A stretch of DNA of 34,403 nt, taken from assembly GCA_037441385.1 (NCBI GenBank), contig JBBISH010000066.1, positions 1 to 34,403 on the forward strand, read 5' to 3'. The position numbers and the translations under genes are program-made. Shown piece after piece: positions 1 to 26,677 of this stretch (position 1 is its first letter; every line of letters begins with the position of its first letter). The notes beneath the pieces are model-generated. The model did not search any database. It had not been told where the DNA came from and worked only from the letters and a program-made list of their open reading frames with translations. The stretch comes from Myxococcales bacterium. GTDB lineage: Bacteria; Myxococcota_A; UBA9042.

Positions 1-275
1 TCCTGGAAGCCGTTCTTGTTTTCGGCCTGGGTCGGGCACTTGTCGTCGCTGTCCTCGATGCCGTCGCCGTCCTTGTCGCCGTCCGGGCAGCCGTCGTCGT
101 CTTTCATGCCGTTCTTGACTTCGGCGTCGTTGGGGCACTTGTCGCTGGTGTCGGCAATGCCGTCGCCGTCATTGTCCGGGTCGGGGCAGCCGTCTTCGTC
201 TTGGAAGCCGTCTTTGTCCTCTTTTTCCAGCGGGCACTTGTCCAGCTTGTCCGGCACGCCGTCGCCATCGGTGTC
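1..275 (-). repeat. Coding TSP3-like tandem repeats (DxDGDGxxDxxDKCP...xGxxDxDGCPD)
   Basis: About three repeat units visible in the translation. Confidence 0.85.
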
Positions 276-887
276 GCGGGCGGCCTTGCCAAACAGGTAG
301 TACAGGCCAAACCAGCCTTCGCCTTCGACCACGTTCTTGCTGTTGCGGCCCGGCACGGTCATGCCGATGGCGTCCAGGCGCAGGCCCAGATCCTCCGTCA
401 GCTCGATGCGGGTACCGATGCCGCCCATGAAGTTGGCGGTGTCGCCGTCGCTTTTGTCGGCCACTTTGCTCGACGAAGTCGACAGGATCTCCGAGCCCAT
501 GCCGATGCGGACGAAGGGGCGGAACATGCCGTCGTTGAAGAAGTTCCACATCGCGTGGCCGCGCAAGCCGATGACGTTGGCCGCGTCGCCCGAGCCCTTG
601 AGGGACGAGAGCACGTACTTGGCCTCGCCTTCCACCGCGATGTGATCGGTCAGGTGGTAGCCCAGGCGCAGGCCAAAGCCAGGACCCGGCTGGACGATCT
701 GCGTCTTGTCTTTGGCATTGCCCAACTCGTTGGTACTGTTCTTGATGTCATAGCCGCCAAACAGGCCTAATTCCACGCTGCCCGCAGGTTCGGCATGCGC
801 GGGTGTGGCCCGCATCGCCGAACCGATCAGGACCATCAGGGCCGCCGGCAGCAACACCGTAATTTTGTGGACTTTGCCAATGTTCAT
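1..887 (-). CDS. OmpA-family outer-membrane protein: beta-barrel plus thrombospondin type-3-like Ca-binding repeats; 3' end runs off the window
   Basis: Not in the ORF track because it has no stop inside the window. Manual translation from ATG 887 (RBS AAGGAG) gives signal peptide [32 protein letters not shown], alternating barrel strands ([20 protein letters not shown]), then repeats such as [31 protein letters not shown]-terminal OmpA domain is inferred, not seen. Confidence 0.85.
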
Positions 888-1111
888 CGCACTCTCCTTG
901 CGTTCGCAGTCGCGCTCGTGCGTCCAAATCCATTCAGGCATCGGGGGCACGCGCGCGCATTGTGCCATCCTGGTGAGCTGATCTCAAACTTGAGCACTAC
1001 TTTTGTTCACACCTCAAAGTGCAAAGGCATCGCAAGTTCTGATCTGCAAGGCAGAAAAATCTGCTCGGCCGGGCCGGAGCCAAGCGCAGCGGACCAACTC
1101 GCCGCCCCTCA

Positions 1112-2278
1112 CTATTCGGTGTTCAACGTGCAGAATGGCAGATCGTCGCTCAGGCGGACGAGAGTCGGCTCGTCGCCACACAAGGCGCAAGCCGCGTCCC
1201 GGCGCAGTTTGATGGTGCGACTCCGCCCGGCGAGCGCGTCGTGAATGGCCAGGCGTCCCAGCAGCGGTTCGCCAATGTCCAGAAGAATCTTCAGGACTTC
1301 AGTGGCCTGCATCAGCCCCACCAGGCCGGGCAACACGCCCAGGACGCCGTTGTCGGTACACGAGCCAAAAGCCTCGGCTGGCGGCGGCTGAGGAAACAGG
1401 CACCGGTAGCACGGCCCGCCGCGGGCTGACCACAGCACGGTGCACGAGCCTTGGAAGCGGTGGATCGAGCCGTGAATGTTGGGCTTTTTTGCCAGGTGGC
1501 AGGCATCGTTGAGCAAGTAGCGGGTGGCAAAATTGTCGCACGCATCCACGACGACATCATAGCCCGCCACTAGATCCATGGCATTTGCTGACGTAATCCT
1601 GCAAAAATGCGCCTCTATGGCCACATCTGGATTCAAGGCCTGCAAGGCTTGACGCGCCGACTCGACTTTGCGATCGCCGAGCCGGGCGGTGCTGTGGATC
1701 ACTTGTCGTTGCAGATTACTGATATCCACCACATCGCCGTCGCAAAGCCCCAGCGTGCCCACGCCCGCCGCCGCGAGATACAGCGCTACCGGCGAGCCCA
1801 GGCCACCCAGCCCCACGATCAGGACGCGGCTCTTCAGCAGCCGCAGCTGGCCGGCCTCGCCAACTTCGGGAAGTAGCAAGTGCCGGCCGTAGCGAAGCTT
1901 TTGCGCCGCCGACAGCCCGCCGGGAGCCTCCAGCGGCAGCCCGGCCGCTTGCCACGCTTGCACGCCGCCGGCAAGGGACTGCACATTGCGATAGCCCATG
2001 TCGATCAGGGACTTAGCCGCAAGCGCCGAGCGAGCCCCAGCCGCGCAGAACAGCACAATGGGCGCGTCGGCGTCGGGCTGCAGCTGAGCGAGGCGCGACT
2101 CCAGGAACGGCCGCCCCAGGCAATGCGCGCCCGCCAGCGTGCCGGCTTCGGTCTCGCTCGGTTCGCGGACGTCGACCAAGGTGACGCCACCCAACGCCAG
2201 CCGCGCCGCCAATTCGCTCGGGCGAATCTCGGCAATGGCCTCGCGCACGGCGTGCAAGTGGTCGGCGAAGCTCGGCAC
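1112..2278 (-). CDS. moeB: MoeB/MoeZ-type adenylyltransferase-sulfurtransferase (N-terminal rhodanese plus ThiF domain)
   Basis: Rhodanese motifs DVRE and FCAAGARS; ThiF motifs RYGRH, GLGGLG, DxVDISNLQRQ, CYRC, SC..GVLG, CALC. Confidence 0.9.
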   Translation of the reverse strand: MPSFADHLHAVREAIAEIRPSELAARLALGGVTLVDVREPSETEAGTLAGAHCLGRPFLESRLAQLQPDADAPIVLFCAAGARSALAAKSLIDMGYRNVQSLAGGVQAWQAAGLPLEAPGGLSAAQKLRYGRHLLLPEVGEAGQLRLLKSRVLIVGLGGLGSPVALYLAAAGVGTLGLCDGDVVDISNLQRQVIHSTARLGDRKVESARQALQALNPDVAIEAHFCRITSANAMDLVAGYDVVVDACDNFATRYLLNDACHLAKKPNIHGSIHRFQGSCTVLWSARGGPCYRCLFPQPPPAEAFGSCTDNGVLGVLPGLVGLMQATEVLKILLDIGEPLLGRLAIHDALAGRSRTIKLRRDAACALCGDEPTLVRLSDDLPFCTLNTE

Positions 2279-2282
2279 AGAG

Positions 2283-2756
2283 CTATCCTTGCGAATTGAG
2301 CAGTTGGCCTAGCTCGGCCAGCGCCATGTTCCAACCCGTAGACACGGCCTCGATGAGCACGTCGGGCGAAAACGCCGTCTCCGTCACCAAGAGCGGGCTG
2401 ATGACGGTGACCACGCAACCCGCCGTACCGTCGTGCAATTCCGCCGGAGCGATCGCGATCCGCAGGACTTCGCCAGGAGCCTCTTGGTCGTCGGAACTCC
2501 ACTGCAGGATCACCAGACTCGGCTCGTCCAAAACCGCCCAACGGCCGCGGCGCTGCCACGTCTCGCCATCCTCGTCCAGCCAGGTGCAATGGACTTCGCC
2601 GTCGACCACCGGCTCACTCGCGGCGGTGTGGCAGAACCATTGGGCCAGTCGGTCCGCGGCGGTGAACCACAGGAAGGCCTGCTCGGGCGGCACCGGCAAC
2701 GGCTGGCGCACGATGACCTGGCGGCGCTCGGCCGCGGCAACTTGGGGCGGCAACAT
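2283..2756 (-). CDS. SRPBCC/AHSA1-like domain protein
   Basis: PPEQAFLWFT...LAQWF, C-terminal GWNMALAEL helix, size of about 157 aa. Confidence 0.7.
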   Translation of the reverse strand: MLPPQVAAAERRQVIVRQPLPVPPEQAFLWFTAADRLAQWFCHTAASEPVVDGEVHCTWLDEDGETWQRRGRWAVLDEPSLVILQWSSDDQEAPGEVLRIAIAPAELHDGTAGCVVTVISPLLVTETAFSPDVLIEAVSTGWNMALAELGQLLNSQG

Positions 2757-2759
2757 CGG

Positions 2760-4424
2760 CTACTTTCCTTTGCCTTTCTTGCCCTTCTTGCCCTTCTCGG
2801 CGGCTGGCTCGGCCTTCTTGGGCATCAGTTCGGCCACGGACTTGCCCAGCGAGTCAAAGATGCTCTTGACGCAGGCGTCCGGCGTGGCGATCGGCGCGAG
2901 CAATTCCTGTGCGTCCACCACTAGCTCCACGCGCGCCTTGCCCGAAGGCAGGCCTTGGTCAAACTGTTCGAACAGGTGCTCGGCATTGCCGCCGCGCTTG
3001 CACAGCGACTGCGCCAGCTCGACTGCGCAGGCCTGACCAGCTTTGCTGCCCAGCAGGAACCCTGCGATTTCGTTCGACTCGAGCAGCGCCGCCTTCTCCT
3101 CCAGGCGCTTGCAGTCGGGCTTGCCGTCCAGTCCCACCAGTTGCGCAGCGGTCCAACGCGCCAAGAACAGGTCGCCCAAGCTCTGATTGTCAAAGTGGAA
3201 AATCCCCTGCCCCTCGGTCCCTTCGCGGAAAAGCGACGACTGCAGCAGACGCTCGCACGTCGAGTGCTTGTCGGGCGCATCGGGCAAAGCGTTGGCGGCG
3301 ATGCATTCCTCCAGTTGGAACTGGAAATTGCGCTGCCCGCTTCCGGGGTTCTTGGCCGCCACCATGGCGTCCACGGTGGTCATGGCCTCTTGCGGCGTCC
3401 AGGGCACGGGCAAGCCCTGCAGGTCGCGGATCAGCTGCGCCGCGACAAAGTAGGTGTAGACCTGCGAGCGACTGGCCTGGAAGTTCTTGAACTCCGGGTT
3501 GTTCTTGTCGATTGCCGCGCTGCGAGCCAGGGCGCGCACCACCTGCAAGTCGCGGTAGGTCGCCATGTGCGGGTAGTGGCAGCGGTCAAAGCTGGTCACC
3601 TTGCGGTCGATGCCGTAGTGATGCATGAAATCTTTGACCGATTGCGTCTCTTCGGTAGTGGTCACGTGCTCGGCCAACCACACATCCGCCTGATCGCAGG
3701 TCAGTTGGGGCAGCTCGAGCCGGCCCTGCACCGTCTTGATGCCGTAGTTGCTGGTAAAGACGGGCGGGCGCGTCATCACGAGCAAGTGGCCCTTGGGTGC
3801 CAGCCGCGCCGCGAAATCGTCGATCGCACGGGCGATTTCCTCGCGCGACAGCAGCGGCGTCTCGTCCAGCGCGTCCAGAACCACCACCCAGTTCAGGTTG
3901 CCCATCGCCGCCTGGATGGCCGCCTCGGCGCCCAACGGCTCCACTTTGGCGATCCGGCTCGCCACCGCCACGGCCACGGGATTCACACCAGAGGGCAGTT
4001 TGCCCAAGTTCGGCGCGACTTCGCTGGCTAGGTCGATGCGGTAGAACGGCAGCTGACCACAGACTTGCGCTTCCAGCGACTCGGCCAGCTGAGATTTGCC
4101 GGTGCCGCCGCGGGCCATCACCAGCGCGGTCTGCAAGTTCAGGGCGCTGGCACCGGTGGCCGTCAGCGCCGCCGCCAAGTCGACTTCGCTCATGTAGGCG
4201 GGCGCGCCGCCAGTCTTCTGGCTGGGCCAAAGGTGAACCAGCAGCTCGACGGGCACATAGGCCCGCGACGCGAGCGCCGCTTGGTGCTTGTCCAGGCGGG
4301 CTTTGCAGGCGGCAGCGTACTCGGGGCCAGGCCCAGTGGGCGGTGGCGGGCCCTTGACCTCGGGCGCGCCGCAGCTGGTCAGGGCGACACCAGCCGCAAG
4401 TGACCACGTTGCAAGGTTTTTCAT
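2760..4424 (-). CDS. Lipoprotein carrying a NACHT/STAND-type P-loop NTPase domain
   Basis: ATG 4424 with RBS AAGGA (alternative ATG 4442); lipobox LTS-C; YVP motif, Walker A ARGGTGKS, Walker B VVVLDALDE, sensor LLVMTRP, SRSQVY..FV, winged-helix FHFDNQSLGDLFLA. Confidence 0.75.
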   Translation of the reverse strand: MKNLATWSLAAGVALTSCGAPEVKGPPPPTGPGPEYAAACKARLDKHQAALASRAYVPVELLVHLWPSQKTGGAPAYMSEVDLAAALTATGASALNLQTALVMARGGTGKSQLAESLEAQVCGQLPFYRIDLASEVAPNLGKLPSGVNPVAVAVASRIAKVEPLGAEAAIQAAMGNLNWVVVLDALDETPLLSREEIARAIDDFAARLAPKGHLLVMTRPPVFTSNYGIKTVQGRLELPQLTCDQADVWLAEHVTTTEETQSVKDFMHHYGIDRKVTSFDRCHYPHMATYRDLQVVRALARSAAIDKNNPEFKNFQASRSQVYTYFVAAQLIRDLQGLPVPWTPQEAMTTVDAMVAAKNPGSGQRNFQFQLEECIAANALPDAPDKHSTCERLLQSSLFREGTEGQGIFHFDNQSLGDLFLARWTAAQLVGLDGKPDCKRLEEKAALLESNEIAGFLLGSKAGQACAVELAQSLCKRGGNAEHLFEQFDQGLPSGKARVELVVDAQELLAPIATPDACVKSIFDSLGKSVAELMPKKAEPAAEKGKKGKKGKGK

Positions 4425-4662
4425 CACGAGTTCCTTCGACATGCCCGTCTCCACCTGTGCGCCTCGCGCCCGATCCGGTCGCCGCAGCGGCGAGCTTAGG
4501 AGCATGGCGCATTGTCGCTGCGGACGCAATTTCTTGCCGGCCTGGCGCCGGGCCCGTATGCCTGCGAGCGCATCCTGGCACTATCCTGTGATTTCAGCCA
4601 AATGCTGCGACTCGGCCGGCGTTGGCTTGGCAGGGGTGCGCCGCGAATGCTAGCGTGCCGCC

Positions 4663-5409
4663 ATGATCACTTGCCCGCTCCCCTTTTCTCAGGCCGAAGA
4701 TCTGGTCGCCAAGCTCCAGCGCGAGTTGGATTTGGCCCCGCCGCAAACCATCTTGCAGGCCGCCCACGCGCATTTTGGAACTGCCGCCGCTATCGCGTTT
4801 TCTGGGGCCGAGGACGTGGCGCTGCTGGGCCTGTGTCGCGACTTTGATCTGCCGTTGCGCGCGTTCTTCTTGGACACCGGCCGGCTGGCGCCAGAGACCC
4901 TAGAACTGGCCGAAGCCGTTCGGGAGAAGCTGGGTTTCGACTTGGAAGTGTACAGCCCACAGGCCCAGGCGGTGCAGGAGCTGGTGCGCGCCAAGGGGCT
5001 GTTTTCGTTCTATCGCGATGGCCACAGCGAGTGCTGTGGGGTGCGCAAGGTCGAGCCGCTGGGGCGGGCGCTGGCCGGGACCCCTGCCTGGCTGACGGGC
5101 CAGCGCCGCGACCAGAGCCCGGCCACCCGCGCCGAAGTGCCGATCGTGCAAGTGGATCTGGCCCACTCGTCGCCGGAGTGCGCAGTGGTGAAGTTCAATC
5201 CGCTGGCGCGCTGGACGTCGGCTCAAGTGTGGAAGTACATCCGCGCGGCCGAATTACCATTCAATGCTCTGCACTTGCGCGGCTACGTCTCGATCGGCTG
5301 CGCGCCGTGCACGCGCCCTGTCCTGCCGGGTCAACACGAGCGTGAAGGCCGCTGGTGGTGGGAAGACGCCGCGCGCAAAGAGTGTGGCCTGCACGGCGCG
5401 GACAAGTAG
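4663..5409 (+). CDS. cysH: Thioredoxin-dependent APS/PAPS reductase of the [4Fe-4S] APS-reductase type
   Basis: [40 protein letters not shown], terminal ECGLH. The CC...CxxC set points to the APS-reductase type. Confidence 0.93.
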
Positions 5410-5421
5410 CCGTTTGGCGGT

Positions 5422-6918
5422 ATGGCTGGCATGCTCCGCGGCCGGCGCCGGGCGCCGTTGGAGCACACCATGGGACGCTTTCCGCCAACCCAGGCCGGCC
5501 TGGCCGCACTGTTGCAGGCCAGCGGCATCACGTTGAGCGACGAGCAACTGAGCCAGCTATGGCGCTACCACCAGCTGCTGCACGAGCGCAACGACGACGG
5601 CGACCTGACCCGTCTGCGCGCGTTTGACACCATGGTTTCGCTGCACTACGTGGACTGCCTGCTGGTCGCGCAAAAACTGGCCGGGCGACTGCCGTCGCCG
5701 CTGCTCGACATCGGCTCGGGCGCAGGGCTGCCGGGGGTGCCACTCAAGATTGGCTCGCCCGCCACCACCGTGATCTGCAACGAAATGCGCGCCAAGCGGA
5801 TCGCCTTCATCGACGAGGCCATCCAAACCTGCGGTCTGCAAGGCATCTCGACGTGGCACGCCACCTTGGGCCACCACTTTGACGACGCCGTGGGCGGCGT
5901 GGTCACCCGCGCGTTCGAGAAGATCCCCGTGACCCTGACGCGCGTGCGGCGGATGGTGCAGCCGGGCGGCCTGGCGATCTTCATGAAGGGGCCCAACTGC
6001 GACGACGAAATTGCCGAGGCGCAGGCCAGCTTTGCCAGCTCTTGGCGGCTGCGGGATGATCTGGCCTACGACATCCCGTTCACGACACACCGGCGTCGCT
6101 TGGTGACGTTCGAGCGGCTGGCCGATCCGACGGAGGTCGGGCGACGCCGGACACGACGCATTGAGTCGGGTAGCAACGAGGCGATGCGCACGTGGCGCGA
6201 CTTGCTGACGGGCAAGGGCATTCGCAAGCACGGACTGGCGCTGGTGGCCGGCTCCAAGCTGGTGCCCGAAGTGCTGCGCGATTTTGCGCACTTGTGCGTC
6301 GAGCTGCTGGTGCCGCTGGGGACGGAGCACGTGGGGGCCGAGGCGAACCCCGACCTGCCCGTGGCCTTGCTGGCGCCGGATTTGTTCCGCGAGCTGGACC
6401 AATTTGGCACCAAGGGGCCGCTGGTCGTGGTTCGCGCGCCACAGCCGCGGCCGTGGCCGGGGGCCCTGCAAGGCCGTGGTGTGCAGGGCGCGACCCTGGC
6501 AGTGCCGTTCCAGGACCCGGAAAATGTTGGAGCGGTGCTGCGTTCTGCGGCCGCGCTGGGCGTGCGCGAGGTGGTGCTGACGCGTGAGGCGGCCTCGCCG
6601 TTCCATCCCAAGGCCGTGCGAGCCGGCGGGCTGGCGGCGTGGCGGATGAACCTGTGGAGCGGCGCGAGCCTGGCCGACATCGCCGCGGCCTTGCCCGCCG
6701 AGCAACTGGTGGCGCTCTCGGCCGAGGGCACGCCTCTGCAAAAGTTCGTCTTTCCAGAGGATTTCTTGCTGTTGCCCGGTGTGGAAGGGCCCGGACTTCC
6801 GGCTGACCTGCGCGCGCAGTCCGTTGCGATCGGCATGGCGGACGGGAGCGAATCGCTGAACGGCCCGGTGGCAGTGGCGATCGCCCTGTACCGTTGGGGC
6901 AGCCAGGACGCGTCCTGA
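5422..6918 (+). CDS. rsmG: Fusion of RsmG (16S rRNA m7G527 methyltransferase) and a TrmH/SpoU-family RNA methyltransferase
   Basis: N-half: HYVDCL, LLDIGSGAGLPGVPL, TRAF, MKGP. C-half: IESGSN, QDPENVGAVLRSA, PKAVRA, GVEGPGL, ESLNGPVA. One uninterrupted ORF; the start could be 5422, 5431 or 5470. Confidence 0.85.
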   Translation: MAGMLRGRRRAPLEHTMGRFPPTQAGLAALLQASGITLSDEQLSQLWRYHQLLHERNDDGDLTRLRAFDTMVSLHYVDCLLVAQKLAGRLPSPLLDIGSGAGLPGVPLKIGSPATTVICNEMRAKRIAFIDEAIQTCGLQGISTWHATLGHHFDDAVGGVVTRAFEKIPVTLTRVRRMVQPGGLAIFMKGPNCDDEIAEAQASFASSWRLRDDLAYDIPFTTHRRRLVTFERLADPTEVGRRRTRRIESGSNEAMRTWRDLLTGKGIRKHGLALVAGSKLVPEVLRDFAHLCVELLVPLGTEHVGAEANPDLPVALLAPDLFRELDQFGTKGPLVVVRAPQPRPWPGALQGRGVQGATLAVPFQDPENVGAVLRSAAALGVREVVLTREAASPFHPKAVRAGGLAAWRMNLWSGASLADIAAALPAEQLVALSAEGTPLQKFVFPEDFLLLPGVEGPGLPADLRAQSVAIGMADGSESLNGPVAVAIALYRWGSQDAS

Positions 6919-6968: not shown

Positions 6969-7949
6969 CTACTTCTCGGCGGGCTTCTCGGCCTTCTTGG
7001 GCTCGACAGGCGCAACTTGGCCAAACGACGCGATCACTGGGTCGTTCTTCTGGATGCCGTCGACCTTGACCTCCACGCGCGTGCCGCTGACTTTGGCGAC
7101 CTTGCCCGTATAGACCTGGCCAATCCACGGCACTTCGACCAGCTGGCCGGGCTTGAGCGCCGGCTTGAGCGGAATCGCCCGCAGGTCCGAGACGGCCACC
7201 ATGCGCACGCGTTGGCTGAACTGACGAGTGATCCAGTTGTCGCCCGACTGACCGACCAGCAACACCACCTCATCCTTGCCCTGGGTGCCCTTGGCAAACG
7301 CAAAGTTGCCGGGCTGCAGGCCCTCTTTTTGGCGGGTGACTTCGCGCGGCGACAGGACCTTGACCAGCAGGTCTTCCTTCCAGTTGTCGGGCAAGTCGGT
7401 GTAGCGAACCGTGATCTTCTCGCCGTCGATCTTCTGCACCACCGCGTGCTTGAGCTCGCTGGCCCATTCCGCCAGCACCATGTCGCCCGCCTTCAGCTCG
7501 GCCGCCGTGCTGCCCGCCGGAATCACAAAGAGGCCGCTGGTCTTGAACGTGCCGCCGGTCAGCTCTTTGATGACCACCACGCCGCCCTTGACCTCGCCCA
7601 CATCGTGGGCAAACAGCCGGTAGGGCTTGTTGGCGTCGTCGTAGGCGCGGTGGGCACCCTGCGTCAAGACGAACACGCGGTCGTCGGCCTTGACCGCCGC
7701 GGTGTTGGCCTGCAAGTTCCAGGCATTCTGGTTCGGGTCGCCGTCGCCATCGGCCACGGACGCCGCGGCCGGCGCTGCCACGGCCGAAGCCGCCGCCGGG
7801 GCCGCAACCGCCTCTGCGGGCTTGGTTTCGGCGGCCTTGGCTGGCTCTGCCGCCGGTTTGGCGGCAGGGGCCTCTTGCTTCTTGCAGCCAGCGGCCAGGG
7901 CCAAAGCGGCGGCGCCCAGGGTCAGCCAACGGAGCGAATTCGGGAACAT
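6969..7949 (-). CDS. Lipoprotein with tandem Tudor/SH3-like beta-barrel repeats
   Basis: ATG 7949 with RBS GGAGG; signal peptide ending LAAG-C; Ala/Pro linker; repeats such as LKAGDMVLAEW...AVVQKIDGEKITVRY and LKPGQLVEVPW...GKVAKVSGTRVEVKV. Confidence 0.65.
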   Translation of the reverse strand: MFPNSLRWLTLGAAALALAAGCKKQEAPAAKPAAEPAKAAETKPAEAVAAPAAASAVAAPAAASVADGDGDPNQNAWNLQANTAAVKADDRVFVLTQGAHRAYDDANKPYRLFAHDVGEVKGGVVVIKELTGGTFKTSGLFVIPAGSTAAELKAGDMVLAEWASELKHAVVQKIDGEKITVRYTDLPDNWKEDLLVKVLSPREVTRQKEGLQPGNFAFAKGTQGKDEVVLLVGQSGDNWITRQFSQRVRMVAVSDLRAIPLKPALKPGQLVEVPWIGQVYTGKVAKVSGTRVEVKVDGIQKNDPVIASFGQVAPVEPKKAEKPAEK

Positions 7950-7963
7950 GCGTGCCTCCAGGA

Positions 7964-8560
7964 CTACAAGCGATCCAGTTTCCAAACGCCGTCTTCTTGC
8001 ACGACGACGGGACGAATTTCAAGGCCTTCTTGCGTTTTGACGGTGGCCTGCAGGCGACCGTCAGCCTGCGCCTCGATCGTGAACTCGGGGTGGGCGCTGC
8101 TCAAGACCTGGGCCACTTTGTCGGCATGGCGCCAGAAGCGCTCTTGATACTGACTTTCAATGTCGGCGAACTGCTTGGCGTAGCGCTCGCTGACAAACGG
8201 CCGCAACGCCTTGAGGTCGTGGGCCTTCAGCGCCGGGAGCGCCACCGCCAACGCCCGCCGCGCCACCATCATCCGCTGGTCCGCCGCCGGCACCGCGCCA
8301 TCGACCGGCGCCTGGGCATCGCGCTGCCGAGCCTTCAGGCCGTCCGCCGCCGGAACCCCAGCTAAGGGGGCACCCGCCACTGGCACCCCAGGAACCAGGG
8401 GCACCAAGACTTGCGGGGCCCGCTGCGGCGCCAGCGCAGACTTGACCTGATAGGCCGGCGGCAGGCACCGCGACGGCTCCAAACTGCAGTCGGTGGGCGC
8501 GGTGCACGCGGGGGCCACGGCCAGCCCCGCCAGAGCGGCAAGCTTCAGGAACCTGCTCAT
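7964..8560 (-). CDS. Hypothetical lipoprotein, possible NTF2-like C-terminal domain
   Basis: ATG 8560; MSRFLKLAALAGLAVAPA-C; ends in VQEDGVWKLDRL. Confidence 0.6.
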   Translation of the reverse strand: MSRFLKLAALAGLAVAPACTAPTDCSLEPSRCLPPAYQVKSALAPQRAPQVLVPLVPGVPVAGAPLAGVPAADGLKARQRDAQAPVDGAVPAADQRMMVARRALAVALPALKAHDLKALRPFVSERYAKQFADIESQYQERFWRHADKVAQVLSSAHPEFTIEAQADGRLQATVKTQEGLEIRPVVVQEDGVWKLDRL

Positions 8561-8606
8561 CGCAACACCCTTTACCGGCACCGCGCCGGACGAGTCCGAC
8601 CTGGCA

Positions 8607-9173
<567 letters not shown>

Positions 9174-23425: not shown

Positions 23426-26400
23426 TTGGCCACCCCCAAAACCACCCCAGGTCGCGGTCGTCGCACCGCACTATTCGTCTTTGGCGGCCTGATGTTGCTG
23501 CTCGTCGGCGGTATCGGCATCGGCTCGATCGCCGCAGGCAGCATCCTGCGTTCGCGCTTGCAGATGGTGGCAGACGACGCGGGCTTGGCGCTGAAGCTCG
23601 AGCAGATCTCGGTGTCGCCCTTTGGGCGAATTCGCGTGCAGGGTCTGGCGTTTACCCGCAAAGACGGCAGCAACGTCGCGGCAGTGCAAGAGGCCACGGC
23701 CGAGCTGTCGCCGTGGAAGGCCCTGATGGGGCGGCGGCGGCCGCAGCGCGCGGATGTGCGGCAATTCGAGGTGGACGTGCTGTTGCAGGACGGCAAGCCC
23801 AAGGAGCTGCTGGATCTGTACAAGGCGGCGCGCAAGCAGTTGCCCGCCAAGAAGAAAGTCGACGATCAAGAAGAAAAGCAGGCCAAGGGCGGCACCGCAC
23901 TGTTCGTCGAGCAAGGCGCGGTCACCATTCGCGTCCAGGGCAAGGGCTCGCAGTACCTGCCGCAGGGACTGCGGATTCACGACGTGGCGCTGCACGTGGA
24001 CCTGTCGCACGGCGTGGGCGATCTGGCGGCGGTGGTGGACGGCACGGTGGCGAGCAAGCTGGCGGCCACGCTGGAGACCCAGGCCGACGGGCCGCCGAAA
24101 CTGGCTGCGCGCTTCCAACCCGAATTCCGCCTGAAAATGCCCGATTCGGCGCCGCTGCCGCTGGGGGTGGACTCGATCGCGGTGGCGGGGCTGCGCTTTG
24201 ATGCGCAAGCGGGTGGCTCGGTCGAGGATCTGGTGCTGCGCAAAGGCGAGCAGGTGCTGGTGTCGGTCAAACACGTGCGGCCTCTGACGCAGCGGCTGGG
24301 CGTGGCGGCTGAGCAAATCGCGTTTGCGCTGCCCGAGCCCAAGGCCAGTGGGGACAAGAGCGACGCGGCGGCGGACAAGGCCAAGGCCGACAAGGCGGGT
24401 AAGCCCAGCAAGCCACAGCAGAATGACGGTCCGGCCGCCCAGGCCCCGGCGGGCGTGGCGCAGGCGAGCACCGCGCGGATCTGGAACGGCACGGCCGAGC
24501 GGCTGAGCCTGGCGCTGGACGGTGTGGAAGGTGGTGAAATCCCACTGGTTGCCCGCCTGGAGGCGTGCAAGGTGACGATCCCAGGCAACGTGGGCGTCAT
24601 CGGCGTGCAGGCGGTGGAGCTGAAGACCGACAAGATTCCCGGCGAGCACGCGCTGGAGTCGCTGACCGGGTTTACGGTGGACCAACCCTCGGTGGATTTG
24701 CCCTGGCGGCAAGAGGCCTTGGAGCAGGTACCCGGCGGGCGGCACCTGTGGAAGGCGGTCACGGCAGCGGAGTTGGCCAAGCTGAAGCGCCAGGCGATGG
24801 ACGAGGCCGAGGCCGACGAGGAGCTGAACGACCCCAACCTGCCTCCCGATGTGCGCGACAAGAAGATCAAAGAGCGCGTGGATCAAAAGCTGCGCGAAGC
24901 CGGCAAGTTGCCAGAGGATCCCAAGAACAAGAAACCGGGCGTCAAGAAGCCGCAGGTGGCCGGCGCGCAGCTGGACGACGACGGCAAGAAGGCGGCGCCG
25001 CAGGCGAAGAAGTCGTGGACTTCGACCCAGGTGCAACCCCTGCGCGACCTGCACAAGCAGCTGCTGGGGGCCGACGAGCTGGTGCAGAGCGTCATCGCCA
25101 AGATGGCTCAGGCGCCCAAGCTGAAGCTGCAGGTGCGCGGCGGGCGCTTTGGGCTGCTGCGCGAGGGCTCGAACAAGCCGTTTGGCGGCGTGCAAGACAT
25201 CACGGTGGAGTCGACCCCGGCGCAGGCCGATGGCACGCGCGGGCTGCTCGTGTCGGCCAAACCCTTTGATGACGAACGGGTGTGGGGCGAGATTTCCAGC
25301 GACGTCATCACCGGCCCGGGTCCCAAGCTGCAAAAAGCCAAGCTGAAATTGGCGGGCGGCCATTTTGCTCAGGCGCTGCGCATCGTCAGCTCGGCGGTGT
25401 CGGTGCCGCCGGACTCGGACATCGAGGTCAACCTTGACTTTGCCACCGGGACGGTCGCGGGGCAGAACCTGGCGATCACGGGCGATTTTGCGATCAAGAA
25501 GCTGGGCTTTGACTACTGGCGGTTGGCGCCCAAGCCGATCGACGATTTTTCGGCGGCGGGCAAGGTCGCGTTCCGCGTCAGTGGGCCCGAGAACCTGATC
25601 TCGGTGGACCTGCCCGACCTGACCATCGGCGAGGCCAAGGTCCATGCGCTGCTGGAAGCGACCGACCTGGCCAGCAAACCCACCGTGCATCTGCACTTTG
25701 AGGCACCCAAGCAAGACGCCGGGGCGATGGCGCGATCGATCCCGCCCGGCATGACCTCGACGATCGGCCGCATCGAGGCGCGCGGCGAGATCAGCTGGCT
25801 GGTGGACCTGAAGGTGCCGCTCGCCGACGTGTACAAGTCGGACCTCAAAGTGGAAATGGACGACACGACCTGCGAGATCGTCAAGTTTGGCAACGTGGAC
25901 CTGAACGACTGGGCGGGCGATTTTTCGCGGCCCGTCAACGAGAACGGCACCCTGCTCGACGACGTGCAAGTGGGCCCCAGCTCTGGCTTTTGGGTGCCCC
26001 TGGCCGAGCTGGCGCCCTGGACGTGGTGGGCGATGGTGGCGACCGAGGACGGCCGCTTCTACAAGCACCGCGGCGTGGCGCCAGGTCTGATTCTGCGCGC
26101 GATTCGCTTGGACTTGGACTACGGACGGTTTGTCTACGGCGGCTCGACCATCACGCAACAGCTGGTGAAGAATATCTTTTTGACGCGGGCCAAGAACCTG
26201 TCGCGCAAGTTCGAAGAGCTGCTGATCGTCTGGCACATGGAGCGCGACCTGCAGAAGATCTTGCCGGCCAAAGGGCCCAAGGACCCACCGAACAAGGCCG
26301 CCAAGGACCGCATTCTTGAGCTGTATGTGAACATGATCGAGTTTGGCAACGACGGCAAAGACGTCAAAATCTACGGTCTGCAGCGCGCCGCCAAGACCTA

Positions 26401-26677
26401 CTTTGGCAAGGACGCCGCGGCCTTGTCGCCCCTGGAGTCGGCGTTCCTGGCGGCCAACAAGCCGTGCCCGCGCTGCGGCTACACCCGCTTTGTGACCAAG
26501 AACTGGGACTCTTGGTGGCAGTCGCGCATGAAGGGCATCCTGGACAAGATGCGCAACGAAAAGGTGATCTCGGAAGAGCAGTACCTGGCCGAGATCAACA
26601 CGGTGCCCAAGTTTGTGGGCTGGCCGCAGACCGTTGTGCCGGCGGCGGATGTGCCTTTGGGCGGGACGGAGGAGTAG
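23426..26677 (+). CDS. Large monofunctional peptidoglycan transglycosylase (GT51) with N-terminal TM and a long beta-rich, AsmA-like region
   Basis: C-terminal GT51 motifs EDGRFYKHRG, GGSTITQQLVKN, RKFEE, KDRILELYVN; no transpeptidase domain; about 800 aa N-terminal extension. Confidence 0.85.
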   Translation: MATPKTTPGRGRRTALFVFGGLMLLLVGGIGIGSIAAGSILRSRLQMVADDAGLALKLEQISVSPFGRIRVQGLAFTRKDGSNVAAVQEATAELSPWKALMGRRRPQRADVRQFEVDVLLQDGKPKELLDLYKAARKQLPAKKKVDDQEEKQAKGGTALFVEQGAVTIRVQGKGSQYLPQGLRIHDVALHVDLSHGVGDLAAVVDGTVASKLAATLETQADGPPKLAARFQPEFRLKMPDSAPLPLGVDSIAVAGLRFDAQAGGSVEDLVLRKGEQVLVSVKHVRPLTQRLGVAAEQIAFALPEPKASGDKSDAAADKAKADKAGKPSKPQQNDGPAAQAPAGVAQASTARIWNGTAERLSLALDGVEGGEIPLVARLEACKVTIPGNVGVIGVQAVELKTDKIPGEHALESLTGFTVDQPSVDLPWRQEALEQVPGGRHLWKAVTAAELAKLKRQAMDEAEADEELNDPNLPPDVRDKKIKERVDQKLREAGKLPEDPKNKKPGVKKPQVAGAQLDDDGKKAAPQAKKSWTSTQVQPLRDLHKQLLGADELVQSVIAKMAQAPKLKLQVRGGRFGLLREGSNKPFGGVQDITVESTPAQADGTRGLLVSAKPFDDERVWGEISSDVITGPGPKLQKAKLKLAGGHFAQALRIVSSAVSVPPDSDIEVNLDFATGTVAGQNLAITGDFAIKKLGFDYWRLAPKPIDDFSAAGKVAFRVSGPENLISVDLPDLTIGEAKVHALLEATDLASKPTVHLHFEAPKQDAGAMARSIPPGMTSTIGRIEARGEISWLVDLKVPLADVYKSDLKVEMDDTTCEIVKFGNVDLNDWAGDFSRPVNENGTLLDDVQVGPSSGFWVPLAELAPWTWWAMVATEDGRFYKHRGVAPGLILRAIRLDLDYGRFVYGGSTITQQLVKNIFLTRAKNLSRKFEELLIVWHMERDLQKILPAKGPKDPPNKAAKDRILELYVNMIEFGNDGKDVKIYGLQRAAKTYFGKDAAALSPLESAFLAANKPCPRCGYTRFVTKNWDSWWQSRMKGILDKMRNEKVISEEQYLAEINTVPKFVGWPQTVVPAADVPLGGTEE

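Follow-up and report, generated by a model that had tools for sequence, protein, structure and literature searches.

A predicted lipoprotein with a NACHT-type NTPase module and paired cysteines, conserved in one family of Myxococcota

Introduction

Can a NACHT-type nucleotide switch have its place outside the cytoplasm? This question is raised by a gene at 2760..4442 on the minus strand of a 34,403-nt stretch of contig JBBISH010000066.1, from the genome of an uncultured freshwater myxobacterium. The whole stretch is called the window here, and all coordinates are positions in it unless another contig or locus is named. The gene encodes a predicted lipoprotein with a NACHT-type nucleoside triphosphatase (NTPase) module. 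NACHT and other STAND (signal transduction ATPases with numerous domains) switches are regarded as cytoplasmic and as driven by the ATP pool, whether in bacterial anti-phage proteins or in human inflammasomes. A NACHT module in the envelope would mean either that usable nucleotide is present there, at least transiently, or that the P-loop of NACHT now serves a different ligand, and both would be new.

A reading of the window from its letters alone (the sequence-only reading) had proposed a lipid-anchored, exported NACHT protein with disulfides and without a recognisable effector or sensor-repeat domain. Family alignment, structure modelling and comparison of genomes now make it highly probable that four features occur together: a Sec-type lipoprotein precursor, a bare NACHT module, paired conserved cysteines and vertical inheritance as a core gene. 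What would be new is the compartment of the NACHT module and the way in which it is anchored and stabilised. Residue numbers below follow the 554-residue product read from ATG 4424, in which the lipobox cysteine is Cys18.

Fold and nucleotide-binding site

On the structural model, the mature protein is a bare NACHT module consisting of a nucleotide-binding domain (NBD), helical domain 1 (HD1), a winged-helix domain (WHD) and helical domain 2 (HD2). A word-index search returned 49 homologues of 498-606 residues, none informatively named, and 48 of them were aligned with the query (alignment A1; P0050, which covers 40% of the query, was excluded). The AlphaFold2 model computed on A1 has a predicted local distance difference test score (pLDDT) of 86.2 and a predicted template modelling score of 0.82. 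Its best PDB matches by Foldseek are all NACHT modules of NOD-like receptors (NLRs), with NOD2 (5irm) at E 2e-11 followed by NLRP3 and NLRC4. In VIA-align, NLRC4 (4kxf_B) gave Z 18.5 with a root-mean-square deviation of 5.0 over 416 aligned residues, pairing residues 32-535 of the model with residues 98-603 of the chain. NLRP1 likewise gave Z 18.5, NLRP3 gave Z 16-17.5 (17.5 for 7alv, with 410 aligned; the NLRP3 alignment spans its residues 134 to 676) and NOD2 gave Z 15.6-15.9. ORC/Cdc6 and plant NB-ARC proteins reached Z 11-12.4 only, covering about residues 45-430, the first two thirds of the model. The NACHT fold proposed from sequence motifs is thus borne out by NLRC4 (Z 18.5), NLRP3 (Z 17.5) and NOD2 (Foldseek E 2e-11).

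All features of the gene lie on the minus strand. From fold alignment and secondary structure, an N-terminal helix and the NBD occupy residues 34-240 (3705..4325) and contain C40 and C122. Fold alignment places HD1 and the winged-helix region at residues 243-430 (3135..3698, with C243, C282, C374 and C390); fold alignment and cysteine conservation place an HD2-like helical domain at residues 438-535 (2820..3113, with C438, C466, C475 and C518). The motifs quoted in the sequence-only reading were all found: YVP (residues 56-58), the Walker A or P-loop ARGGTGKS (104-111, 4092..4115), the Walker B VVVLDALDE (180-188, 3861..3887), the sensor-1 region TRPP (218-221, 3762..3773), SRSQVY..FV (318-327) and, within the winged-helix region, the signature FHFDNQSLGDLFLARW (409-424, 3153-3200). 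In the NACHT-type Walker B, a small residue directly follows the Mg-binding Asp and an acidic pair stands two positions on (hhhhD[GAS]hDE), and the motif of this protein has such a small residue after its first Asp. This definition is reportedly due to Koonin and Aravind in 2000.

At the sequence level, the family is linked to NACHT through its relatives. The homologues P0099 and P0104, which match the query at E 4e-46 and 3e-42, exceed the cut-off of Pfam NACHT (PF05729) with 28.5 and 30.2 bits against 26.7. Among the 49 close members, 9 match NACHT at E ≤ 0.1 (best 1.5e-5) and 22 match AAA_16 at the same threshold. A search of NCBIfam with the NACHT protein gave a chance-level match only. 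The single sequence had 0 matches in a PDB sequence search, and a profile found weak P-loop matches only (Toc34, E 0.046). Neither Pfam nor NCBIfam detected an effector or repeat domain, and the NACHT alignment fills residues 32-535 of the 554, in agreement with the absence of such domains noted from the sequence.

The nucleotide-binding site was examined in a family alignment of 123 members of at least 400 residues, taken from P0001-P0151 after exclusion of 26 shorter fragments, P0050 and the doubtful P0151. The Walker A residues G107, G109 and K110 are present in 122/122 rows with letters, as is Ser or Thr at position 111. In Walker B, D184 is found in 122/123 rows (Glu in the other), position 185 is S, A or G in 122/123, D187 is kept in 108/123 (elsewhere Glu, His or Ala) and E188 in 115/123. 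The sensor-1 R219 is invariant (123/123) and P220 occurs in 111/123. Members range down to about 26% identity with the query while these ATPase residues stay nearly invariant. Given how little the Walker A Lys, the acidic residues of Walker B and the Arg of sensor 1 vary, the NACHT module appears, on balance, still to bind and probably to hydrolyse nucleotide, as a STAND-type switch would. Prediction of a two-copy complex of residues 54-535, run without controls, returned 'no answer' (0.00 against a mark of 0.42), which speaks neither for nor against self-association.

Predicted export and lipid anchor

The minus-strand open reading frame was listed as 2760..4529, and its ATG at 4424 yields the 554-residue product, beginning MKNLATWSLAAGVALTS-C. 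An alternative ATG lies at 4442, 18 nt upstream, and its product has 560 residues (MSKELVMKNL...) with 23 residues ahead of the cysteine. ATG 4442 is probably the start, rather than ATG 4424, because GGAG lies 6 nt before it and because the 23-residue spacing is identical in the closest orthologues, P0002 and P0003. The signal peptide is complete whichever ATG is used; the signal peptide and lipobox read from the sequence therefore stand, and the start assigned to them at 4424 is the part that gives way. The coding sequence at 2760..4442, with its stop codon at 2760-2762, was defined from the open reading frame list, translation, GGAG, orthologue N-termini and the ratio of nonsynonymous to synonymous substitution rates (dN/dS).

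The predicted signal peptide MSKELVMKNLATWSLAAGVALTS (4374..4442) has two Lys in its n-region, then a hydrophobic core of few residues, then the lipobox L-T-S followed by Cys. The mature protein is predicted to begin with Cys18 (4371..4373), the residue expected to carry the lipid, as judged by conservation of its alignment column. A Pro/Gly-rich tether, GAPEVKGPPPPTGPG (4326..4370), follows, with pLDDT 53-55 and no secondary structure. Judged from the sequences of the family, the lipoprotein signal is not a chance feature, because a cysteine stands at the lipobox column in 107/123 members (7 of the remainder are N-terminally truncated and 9 have another residue) and a strict lipobox pattern fits 84 of the 116 members that have at least 15 residues before the C40 column. 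The pattern used was [LVI][ASTVI][GAS]-C, of the PROSITE PS51257 type. Most members that fail it have near-lipoboxes such as PIAC or CAAC; the signal of the window's own protein, MSKELVMKNLATWSLAAGVA-LTS-C, fits it. Residue -1 is A, G or S in 101/105 members, residue -3 is L, A or V in 74/105 and residue +2 is Gly in 75/105. Across the family, the linker between the lipobox cysteine and C40 has a median length of 22 residues and a median P/G/A/S/T share of 0.62. Walker motifs and lipobox are thus retained together across the homologues. The genome contains 5 matches to Lgt (PF01790, best E 2e-62) and one to LspA (PF01252, E 5e-26), and paralogues on its contigs C78 and C13 are also lipoproteins.

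Members without the lipobox cysteine carry other anchors. In P0062, P0074, P0084 and P0071, the N-terminus forms a longer signal anchor with Arg or Lys in front of it. The long relatives P0099, P0104, P0143 and P0148 (706-850 residues) consist of an N-terminal domain of about 250-290 residues, a single transmembrane helix and the NACHT module; the N-terminal side of the helix is distinctly the more positive in P0099 and P0104 and slightly so in P0143, and P0148 shows no such bias. All of these relatives retain the Cys-bearing NACHT module. By the positive-inside rule, both arrangements would also place NACHT outside the cytoplasm. Homologues thus keep the lipobox or exchange it for another export or anchor signal, and gene calls that start downstream of it are few and apparently truncated.

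The N-terminal domain of the long relatives matched no Pfam family and had no usable match in the ESM Atlas; a word-index search with residues 1-300 of a long relative returned the query itself as the sole match. In an AlphaFold2 model of P0099 built on 4 sequences only (mean pLDDT 68), residues 7-250 are all-helical with pLDDT of about 60-89. P0143 is encoded at L055 1981-4152 on the minus strand, and the topology of the long relatives resembles that of the anti-sigma factor DdvA.

Two candidates were rejected in the course of this analysis. Tat export with pre-bound nucleotide was considered as a general mechanism, and RR precedes the cysteine in only 22/105 members and not in the window's protein. 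A 1187-residue open frame around the homologue in genome G016 is an artefact of open frames at high GC content, and the actual gene there is signal-anchored.

Cysteines and predicted disulfides

The protein contains exactly ten cysteines besides Cys18, at residues 40, 122, 243, 282, 374, 390, 438, 466, 475 and 518, as counted in the sequence-only reading. C122, C374, C390, C438 and C466 are each present in 122/123 rows and C40 in 116/116 rows with letters, while C243, C282, C475 and C518 are present in 113, 112, 114 and 119 rows, respectively. C243 and C282 were observed to be kept or lost together: of the 121 rows with letters at both positions, 112 have both, 9 have neither and none has a single one. 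On a FastTree tree built without these two columns, 8 changes were inferred, and 6/6 independent supported pairs were concordant (sign test, p 0.031). C374 and C390 are deleted jointly in P0133, and neither C475 nor C518 is present in P0137. In five orthologues C475 is shifted by 5 residues with the cysteine count maintained.

Since every co-varying pair (243/282, 374/390 and 475/518) consists of neighbouring cysteines, the pattern is most simply read as five consecutive disulfides, predicted to be 40-122, 243-282, 374-390, 438-466 and 475-518. Action of DsbA during translocation yields such consecutive pairing, and the host genome has 24 matches to the DsbA family and 2 to VKOR. The disulfides proposed earlier from the even cysteine count are supported by the joint behaviour of C243 and C282 and by these genes. 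Disulfides of this kind would form only in an oxidising envelope. Very probably, then, as far as sequence can tell, the protein is a lipid-anchored, disulfide-stabilised NACHT that is truly extracytoplasmic. Binding of a metal cluster or Fe-S centre by the cysteines was considered and set aside, the cysteines being scattered and lost two at a time.

C-terminal tail

After HD2, the protein continues with a Pro/Ala spacer and a flexible Lys-rich tail. The polycationic segment KKAEPAAEKGKKGKKGKGK (2763..2819), delimited by sequence and charge counts, ends in Lys. A net charge of at least +5 in the last 20 residues occurs in 38/123 members, mostly of the orthologue group, and the final residue is Lys in 40/49 proteins of this group versus 9/67 other members. 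The share of Lys in the 12 residues ahead of the terminal residue is only 0.39 in the orthologue group.

In Braun's lipoprotein Lpp, YkuD-type L,D-transpeptidases are said to attach the terminal Lys to peptidoglycan, and the genome has 4 YkuD-type matches. The two proteins are alike in having an N-terminal lipid anchor and a C-terminal Lys; Lpp is a 58-residue coiled coil without an enzyme domain, and the likeness is confined to the end groups. The resemblance to Lpp is a lead and no more.

Distribution and gene pairing

In an exhaustive search of 1.84 billion cluster representatives, the family was found to comprise 105 at E ≤ 1e-3, 73 of them at E ≤ 1e-30 and nearly all from metagenome-assembled genomes (MAGs) of Myxococcota. 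The 33 loci compared (one genome per species) all come from MAGs of Myxococcota or 'Deltaproteobacteria', save a few with third-party annotation (TPA) labels. In a phylum sample of 401 genomes, the NACHT family occurs in 28/28 sampled genomes of the window's own taxonomic family (f1), with at least 2-3 copies each, and in 3/372 genomes of other families, all of these counts being floors set by a stricter first look and the genomes of one family being kin rather than independent samples. Against the two closest orthologues, the pairs to which the comparison was restricted because more distant ones are saturated, dN/dS is 0.069 and 0.093 (dS 0.61 and 0.97), and by this measure the gene is under purifying selection. 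The distribution points to a vertically inherited, multi-copy core family of one Myxococcota family, rather than to a mobile defence gene.

Immediately downstream lies a gene at 2283..2756 (minus strand) for a 157-residue SRPBCC protein of the AHSA1 family (Pfam AHSA1, E 8e-13) without a signal peptide, followed by a third co-directional gene at 1112..2278 (minus strand) for a MoeB/MoeZ-like rhodanese-ThiF protein (Pfam ThiF, E 1e-79; Rhodanese, E 2e-16). The short gaps reported for this array were confirmed as 3 nt between the NACHT stop at 2760 and the AHSA1 ATG at 2756, and 4 nt between the AHSA1 stop at 2283 and the rhodanese-ThiF GTG at 2278. AHSA1 is immediately downstream in 23 of the 31 loci with enough sequence; the distance from the NACHT stop to the expected AHSA1 start has a median of -6 nt and is at most 36 nt in 20/23 loci. 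The AHSA1 orthologue was found only in f1, with 25/36 genomes there and 0/70 in other families of the class; of the 21 genomes common to both listings, all except G139 (20) have it next to their best NACHT match. Rhodanese-ThiF is downstream in 16/30 loci, with a median gap of 72 nt from AHSA1. The link to the SRPBCC gene is thus stronger than had been supposed from the window, and the link to moeB weaker. By these counts, even though kin genomes are not independent samples, the NACHT and SRPBCC genes are a lineage-specific, tightly coupled pair. AHSA1 products of the other loci likewise have no signal peptide, and the cytoplasmic SRPBCC protein may be a dedicated partner of the NACHT protein; the pairing is an unexplained lead.

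A PAPS reductase gene (CysH-type, C-terminal ECGLH; Pfam PAPS_reduct, E 2.5e-48) at 4663..5409 on the plus strand is divergent from the NACHT gene. It is divergent upstream in 20/27 loci and on the same strand downstream in 2 more. A functional tie to sulfur assimilation through CysH and rhodanese-ThiF is not claimed: the synteny is real, but the ThiF gap is larger and CysH may belong to a housekeeping block.

Several further observations concern the loci and paralogues. TPA records at L009, L011, L022-L024 and L027 are titled 'uncultured Enterobacteriaceae' or 'Klebsiella pneumoniae', which are most likely wrong labels. Three f1 genomes from two genera, G028 and G204 (genus g3) and G184 (genus g6), have a tandem pair of extra NACHT paralogues about 10 kb from the main copy (G028:C17 4611-7804 and 17100-18710; G204:C7 95292-98613 and 108169-109773; G184:C158 675-3952 and 13122-14744), and mixed assemblies might arise from such tandem copies. 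The NACHT paralogues of the window's own genome are on separate contigs. The paralogue on C78 (L002 1321-3036; G000:C78) has as its divergent neighbour a Ser/Thr protein kinase with a C-terminal membrane segment (L002 3-1544, minus strand). A gene for a 222-residue membrane-anchored multi-Cys protein (L002 3052-3720, plus strand) begins 16 nt past the stop of this paralogue, and this tight coupling indicates a partner other than the SRPBCC gene.

Comparison with known systems

Animal NLRs (NLRC4, NLRP3, NOD2 and NLRP1) share with this protein the NBD-HD1-WHD-HD2 module across the mature protein, the Walker A motif, a D-[SAG]-x-D-E Walker B and the sensor-1 Arg. The two differ in that identity is 10-14%, that the protein described here has neither a leucine-rich repeat sensor nor a CARD/PYD effector and that its WHD His is variable. 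The lipoprotein signal, ten conserved cysteines, Lys-rich tail and predicted extracytoplasmic site also set it apart from animal NLRs.

Bacterial defence systems offer a nearer comparison. Six members (P0001, P0099, P0104, P0014, P0062 and P0113) matched 0 families of PADLOC-DB v2.0.0 at E ≤ 0.01. The tripartite layout of anti-phage STAND proteins (effector, NTPase, sensor) was not found, Pfam and NCBIfam showing nothing beside the NTPase. The patchy distribution of defence islands and mobile elements was not found either: the gene is in 28/28 f1 genomes, at a locus fixed beside CysH, GidB-SpoU and rhodanese-ThiF. In the accessible text of Kibby et al. (bioRxiv 10.1101/2022.07.19.500537), bNACHT proteins with transmembrane regions are described as possibly sensing intra-membrane or periplasmic signals. 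Clade 14 of these proteins (bNACHT01, with short C-terminal extensions), as presented there, is likewise a group of bacterial NACHT proteins without C-terminal repeat sensors. The protein described here differs from bNACHT defence proteins in having no N-terminal effector and in being encoded by a core syntenic gene in a housekeeping region. An exported NACHT module was not found in the searched passages of Kibby et al., supplementary Table S1 aside.

Elsewhere, STAND NTPase domains are listed as intracellular in the part of Kaur et al. (2021; PMC8195603) available to us, and STAND-related CR-ATPases are placed there in secreted effectors. Dore et al. (2024; PMC10907252) state in one sentence, from a topology prediction, that the second DGR-3 (DGR, diversity-generating retroelement) target of Thiohalocapsa PB-PSB1 has a NACHT predicted to be periplasmic. 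That protein, from a gammaproteobacterium, combines a DGR-diversified NACHT with a C-type-lectin antigen sensor, whereas the present family has neither the lectin domain nor a DGR; the available text mentions neither a lipoprotein anchor nor conserved disulfides nor a protein family for it. In the accessible literature, no exported or lipoprotein NACHT was found to be described save in that one sentence.

A parallel in topology is DdvA of Myxococcus (PMC11506125), whose periplasmic TPR-CHAT domain lies behind one transmembrane helix and was solved by cryo-electron microscopy. As far as the available text goes, DdvA is also a Myxococcota protein with a periplasmic module that is elsewhere known just from conflict systems of the cytoplasm, one transmembrane helix and a cytoplasmic N-terminal output domain, the topology predicted for P0099, P0104 and P0143 (and, with an ambiguous charge bias, for P0148). 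It differs in having a caspase-like protease fold and no need of nucleotide, in pairing with an extracytoplasmic function sigma factor and in controlling a defence island; no sigma factor was found among the annotated neighbours of the window's NACHT gene. Taken together with DdvA, the family suggests that several 'immune-type' modules have been relocated to the envelope in Myxococcota.

Lig E has been described, in the text available, as a periplasm-targeted ATP-dependent ligase. It is a signal-peptide-bearing, nucleotide-dependent enzyme outside the cytoplasm, so that the missing ATP pool appears to be no bar to such proteins. Lig E differs in its unrelated fold and chemistry and in being a soluble non-lipoprotein, and it can reportedly carry its AMP covalently.

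Proposed mechanism and alternative explanations

How might such a protein work? The reading given here slightly better than even credence is that of a resident extracytoplasmic nucleotide-dependent switch. The precursor would be exported through its Sec-type lipoprotein signal peptide and would receive its lipid on Cys18; the Gly at +2 makes the outer membrane its probable destination. The mature protein would consist of the Pro-rich tether, a bare NACHT module without effector or repeat sensor, and a flexible tail ending in Lys. Nucleotide itself may be the signal, a possibility put forward tentatively; it is the most economical mechanism, because no nucleotide is normally present in the envelope. 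ATP or ADP would reach the periplasm or the cell surface only on a breach of a membrane, through damage to the cell itself, phage entry or lysis of kin or prey. On binding nucleotide, the anchored protein would change its conformation or self-associate. The output of the lipoprotein form could be an altered hold of the cationic tail on peptidoglycan or an anionic membrane surface, and that of the transmembrane relatives a change in the cytoplasmic N-terminal helical domain.

It is doubtful that the NLR-type NACHT goes as far as to act as an envelope danger sensor with leaked nucleotide as its ligand. The module would then be empty or ADP-bound in a nucleotide-free periplasm and would fire on a leak of ATP, after which self-association would alter the link between outer membrane and wall made by the terminal-Lys cationic tail. 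If true, this would make the protein the first extracytoplasmic STAND/NLR protein and a bacterial receptor for extracellular ATP. The protein is a compact (about 500 residues), effector-free NACHT suited to periplasmic expression for nucleotide-binding and assembly tests.

A number of observations weigh against a nucleotide switch in the envelope or against the assignments on which it rests. By textbook account, the periplasm has no maintained ATP pool, and a nucleotide-dependent mechanism therefore requires a source of nucleotide in the envelope; release of ATP by bacteria is reported in the literature. On its own, the window's protein had no NACHT match in Pfam at E ≤ 1, and its sole match, NPHP3_N, scored 13.3 bits against a cut-off of 24.8. 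H410 of the winged-helix region, the counterpart of the ADP-contacting His of animal NLRs, is variable (His in 44/123, Arg in 42/123 and others in the remainder). Statistical co-variation of the cysteines is confined to the 243/282 pair, the other pairs depending on one or two sequences or on elimination, and P0088 is an exception in which C518 is gone and the shifted cysteine is kept, leaving an odd number of cysteines in HD2. The kinship of the f1 genomes and the floor counts of the phylum search, given above, belong here as well. Moreover, the sole conserved partner gene encodes a cytoplasmic protein, unlike what would be expected for a purely envelope system.

As an alternative, the exported, lipid-anchored NACHT fold could be a structural element of the envelope and no longer a nucleotide switch. 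The protein could be a staple between outer membrane and peptidoglycan in the manner of Braun's lipoprotein, by way of its terminal Lys or cationic tail, with the P-loop kept for a phosphorylated non-nucleotide ligand (lipid-linked pyrophosphate, lipid A phosphate or polyphosphate) or for stability of the fold. In its favour are the lack of a known ATP pool in the periplasm, the absence of effector and sensor domains, the layout with a lipid anchor at the N-terminus and a Pro/Ala spacer plus Lys-rich tail at the C-terminus (terminal Lys in 40/49 versus 9/67), 4 YkuD-type matches in the genome and a variable winged-helix His; the gene is also core, syntenic and family-universal, as would be expected of a structural component. 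However, hardly any variation is seen, down to about 26% identity, in the Walker A Lys, the two acidic positions of Walker B and the sensor-1 Arg, a conservation beyond the needs of fold stability, and the catalytic D/E pair in particular speaks for Mg-nucleotide chemistry. The Lys tail is confined to the orthologue group, whereas the ATPase motifs are family-wide, and the terminal-Lys count is weakened by the kinship of the sequences. This alternative is considered unlikely.

Two other readings put the ATPase in a cytoplasm. In one, which would resolve the ATP paradox, the lipoprotein would be displayed on the outer membrane or on vesicles and transferred to another cell, where the ATPase would be used in the recipient cytoplasm, with the SRPBCC protein as the producer's antidote. 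Transfer might proceed by outer-membrane exchange, the route that SitA lipoprotein toxins of Myxococcus reportedly take, or in the manner of secreted STAND-related CR-ATPase effectors, whose existence is noted in the available text of PMC8195603. The gene order resembles a toxin-immunity layout, the gene of a small cytoplasmic protein lying at a median of -6 nt from the NACHT stop in 23 loci and occurring only where NACHT occurs. This reading is very improbable: the NACHT protein has no toxin domain, and its five predicted disulfides would be reduced in the recipient cytoplasm. Polymorphic toxins are patchy and variable, whereas this gene has a fixed housekeeping locus in every sampled f1 genome and a dN/dS of 0.07-0.09. 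The signal-anchored and transmembrane-fused relatives, which cannot leave the inner membrane of the producer and carry the same Cys-bearing NACHT, also argue against delivery. The other reading, that the protein is an ordinary cytoplasmic NACHT with an uncleaved or mis-called hydrophobic N-terminus and with cysteines that bind metal or act as redox-sensing thiols, is barely credible. It has on its side that characterised NACHT/STAND proteins are all cytoplasmic (STAND domains being listed as intracellular in the accessible part of PMC8195603), that the ATPase motifs are intact and that the partner gene product is cytoplasmic. Nevertheless, the N-terminal cysteine comes right after a hydrophobic core that is short and preceded by charged residues, has A, G or S next to it at -1, and is kept in 107/123 members; where the lipobox is missing, a longer transmembrane anchor with an N-in charge bias replaces it and again puts NACHT outside. 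Gene calls that start past the signal are few and look truncated. The cysteines are scattered without CxxC/CxxH clusters and are lost in pairs, not in fours, which fits disulfides rather than a metal site and therefore argues against a cytoplasmic or metal-binding reading.

Neighbouring genes and other observations

The remaining genes of the window encode housekeeping proteins, including cyclophilin, TyrRS, YebC, DeaD, PurH and a Ser/Thr kinase, and no defence island was found in it. A terminator-like hairpin with a T-run was located by pattern scan at 1063..1085 on the minus strand, just past the rhodanese-ThiF stop; the signal is weak, with 2 sites observed against 3.4 expected in shuffled sequences, and only its position is suggestive. 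In the protein encoded at 1112-2278 (minus strand), the rhodanese domain (residues 20-112) is N-terminal to ThiF (130-364). MoeZ/MoeBR-type enzymes have the opposite order of these domains. The gene, in a block with CysH, may serve sulfur-carrier chemistry.

Beyond the PAPS reductase gene lies a gene for a 498-residue GidB-SpoU fusion (5422-6918, plus strand; Pfam). A GidB/RsmG-type 16S rRNA methyltransferase (residues 42-206) is fused in it to a SpoU/TrmH-type methylase (362-490), and the fusion is found beside the NACHT locus in related MAGs with 55-94% identity. Two more predicted lipoproteins without a Pfam family are encoded at 6969-7985 and 7964-8668 (both minus strand), with signals ...LTLGAAALALAAGC... 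and MSRFLKLAALAGLAVAPAC..., respectively. The former contains a long linker rich in Ala, Pro and Lys; its C-terminus, KKAEKPAEK, is Lys-rich and recalls the NACHT tail. This lipoprotein is kept in L005 and L006. At 23426-26677 (plus strand), a 1083-residue protein combines a DUF748-like N-terminus with a C-terminal glycosyltransferase-51 (transglycosylase) domain at 851-1042, an unusual position. Finally, an outer-membrane beta-barrel protein with thrombospondin type-3 (DxDxDGxxD) calcium-binding repeats is encoded at 3-968 (minus strand) and runs off the end of the window; its gene is kept next to rhodanese-ThiF in L005 and L006.

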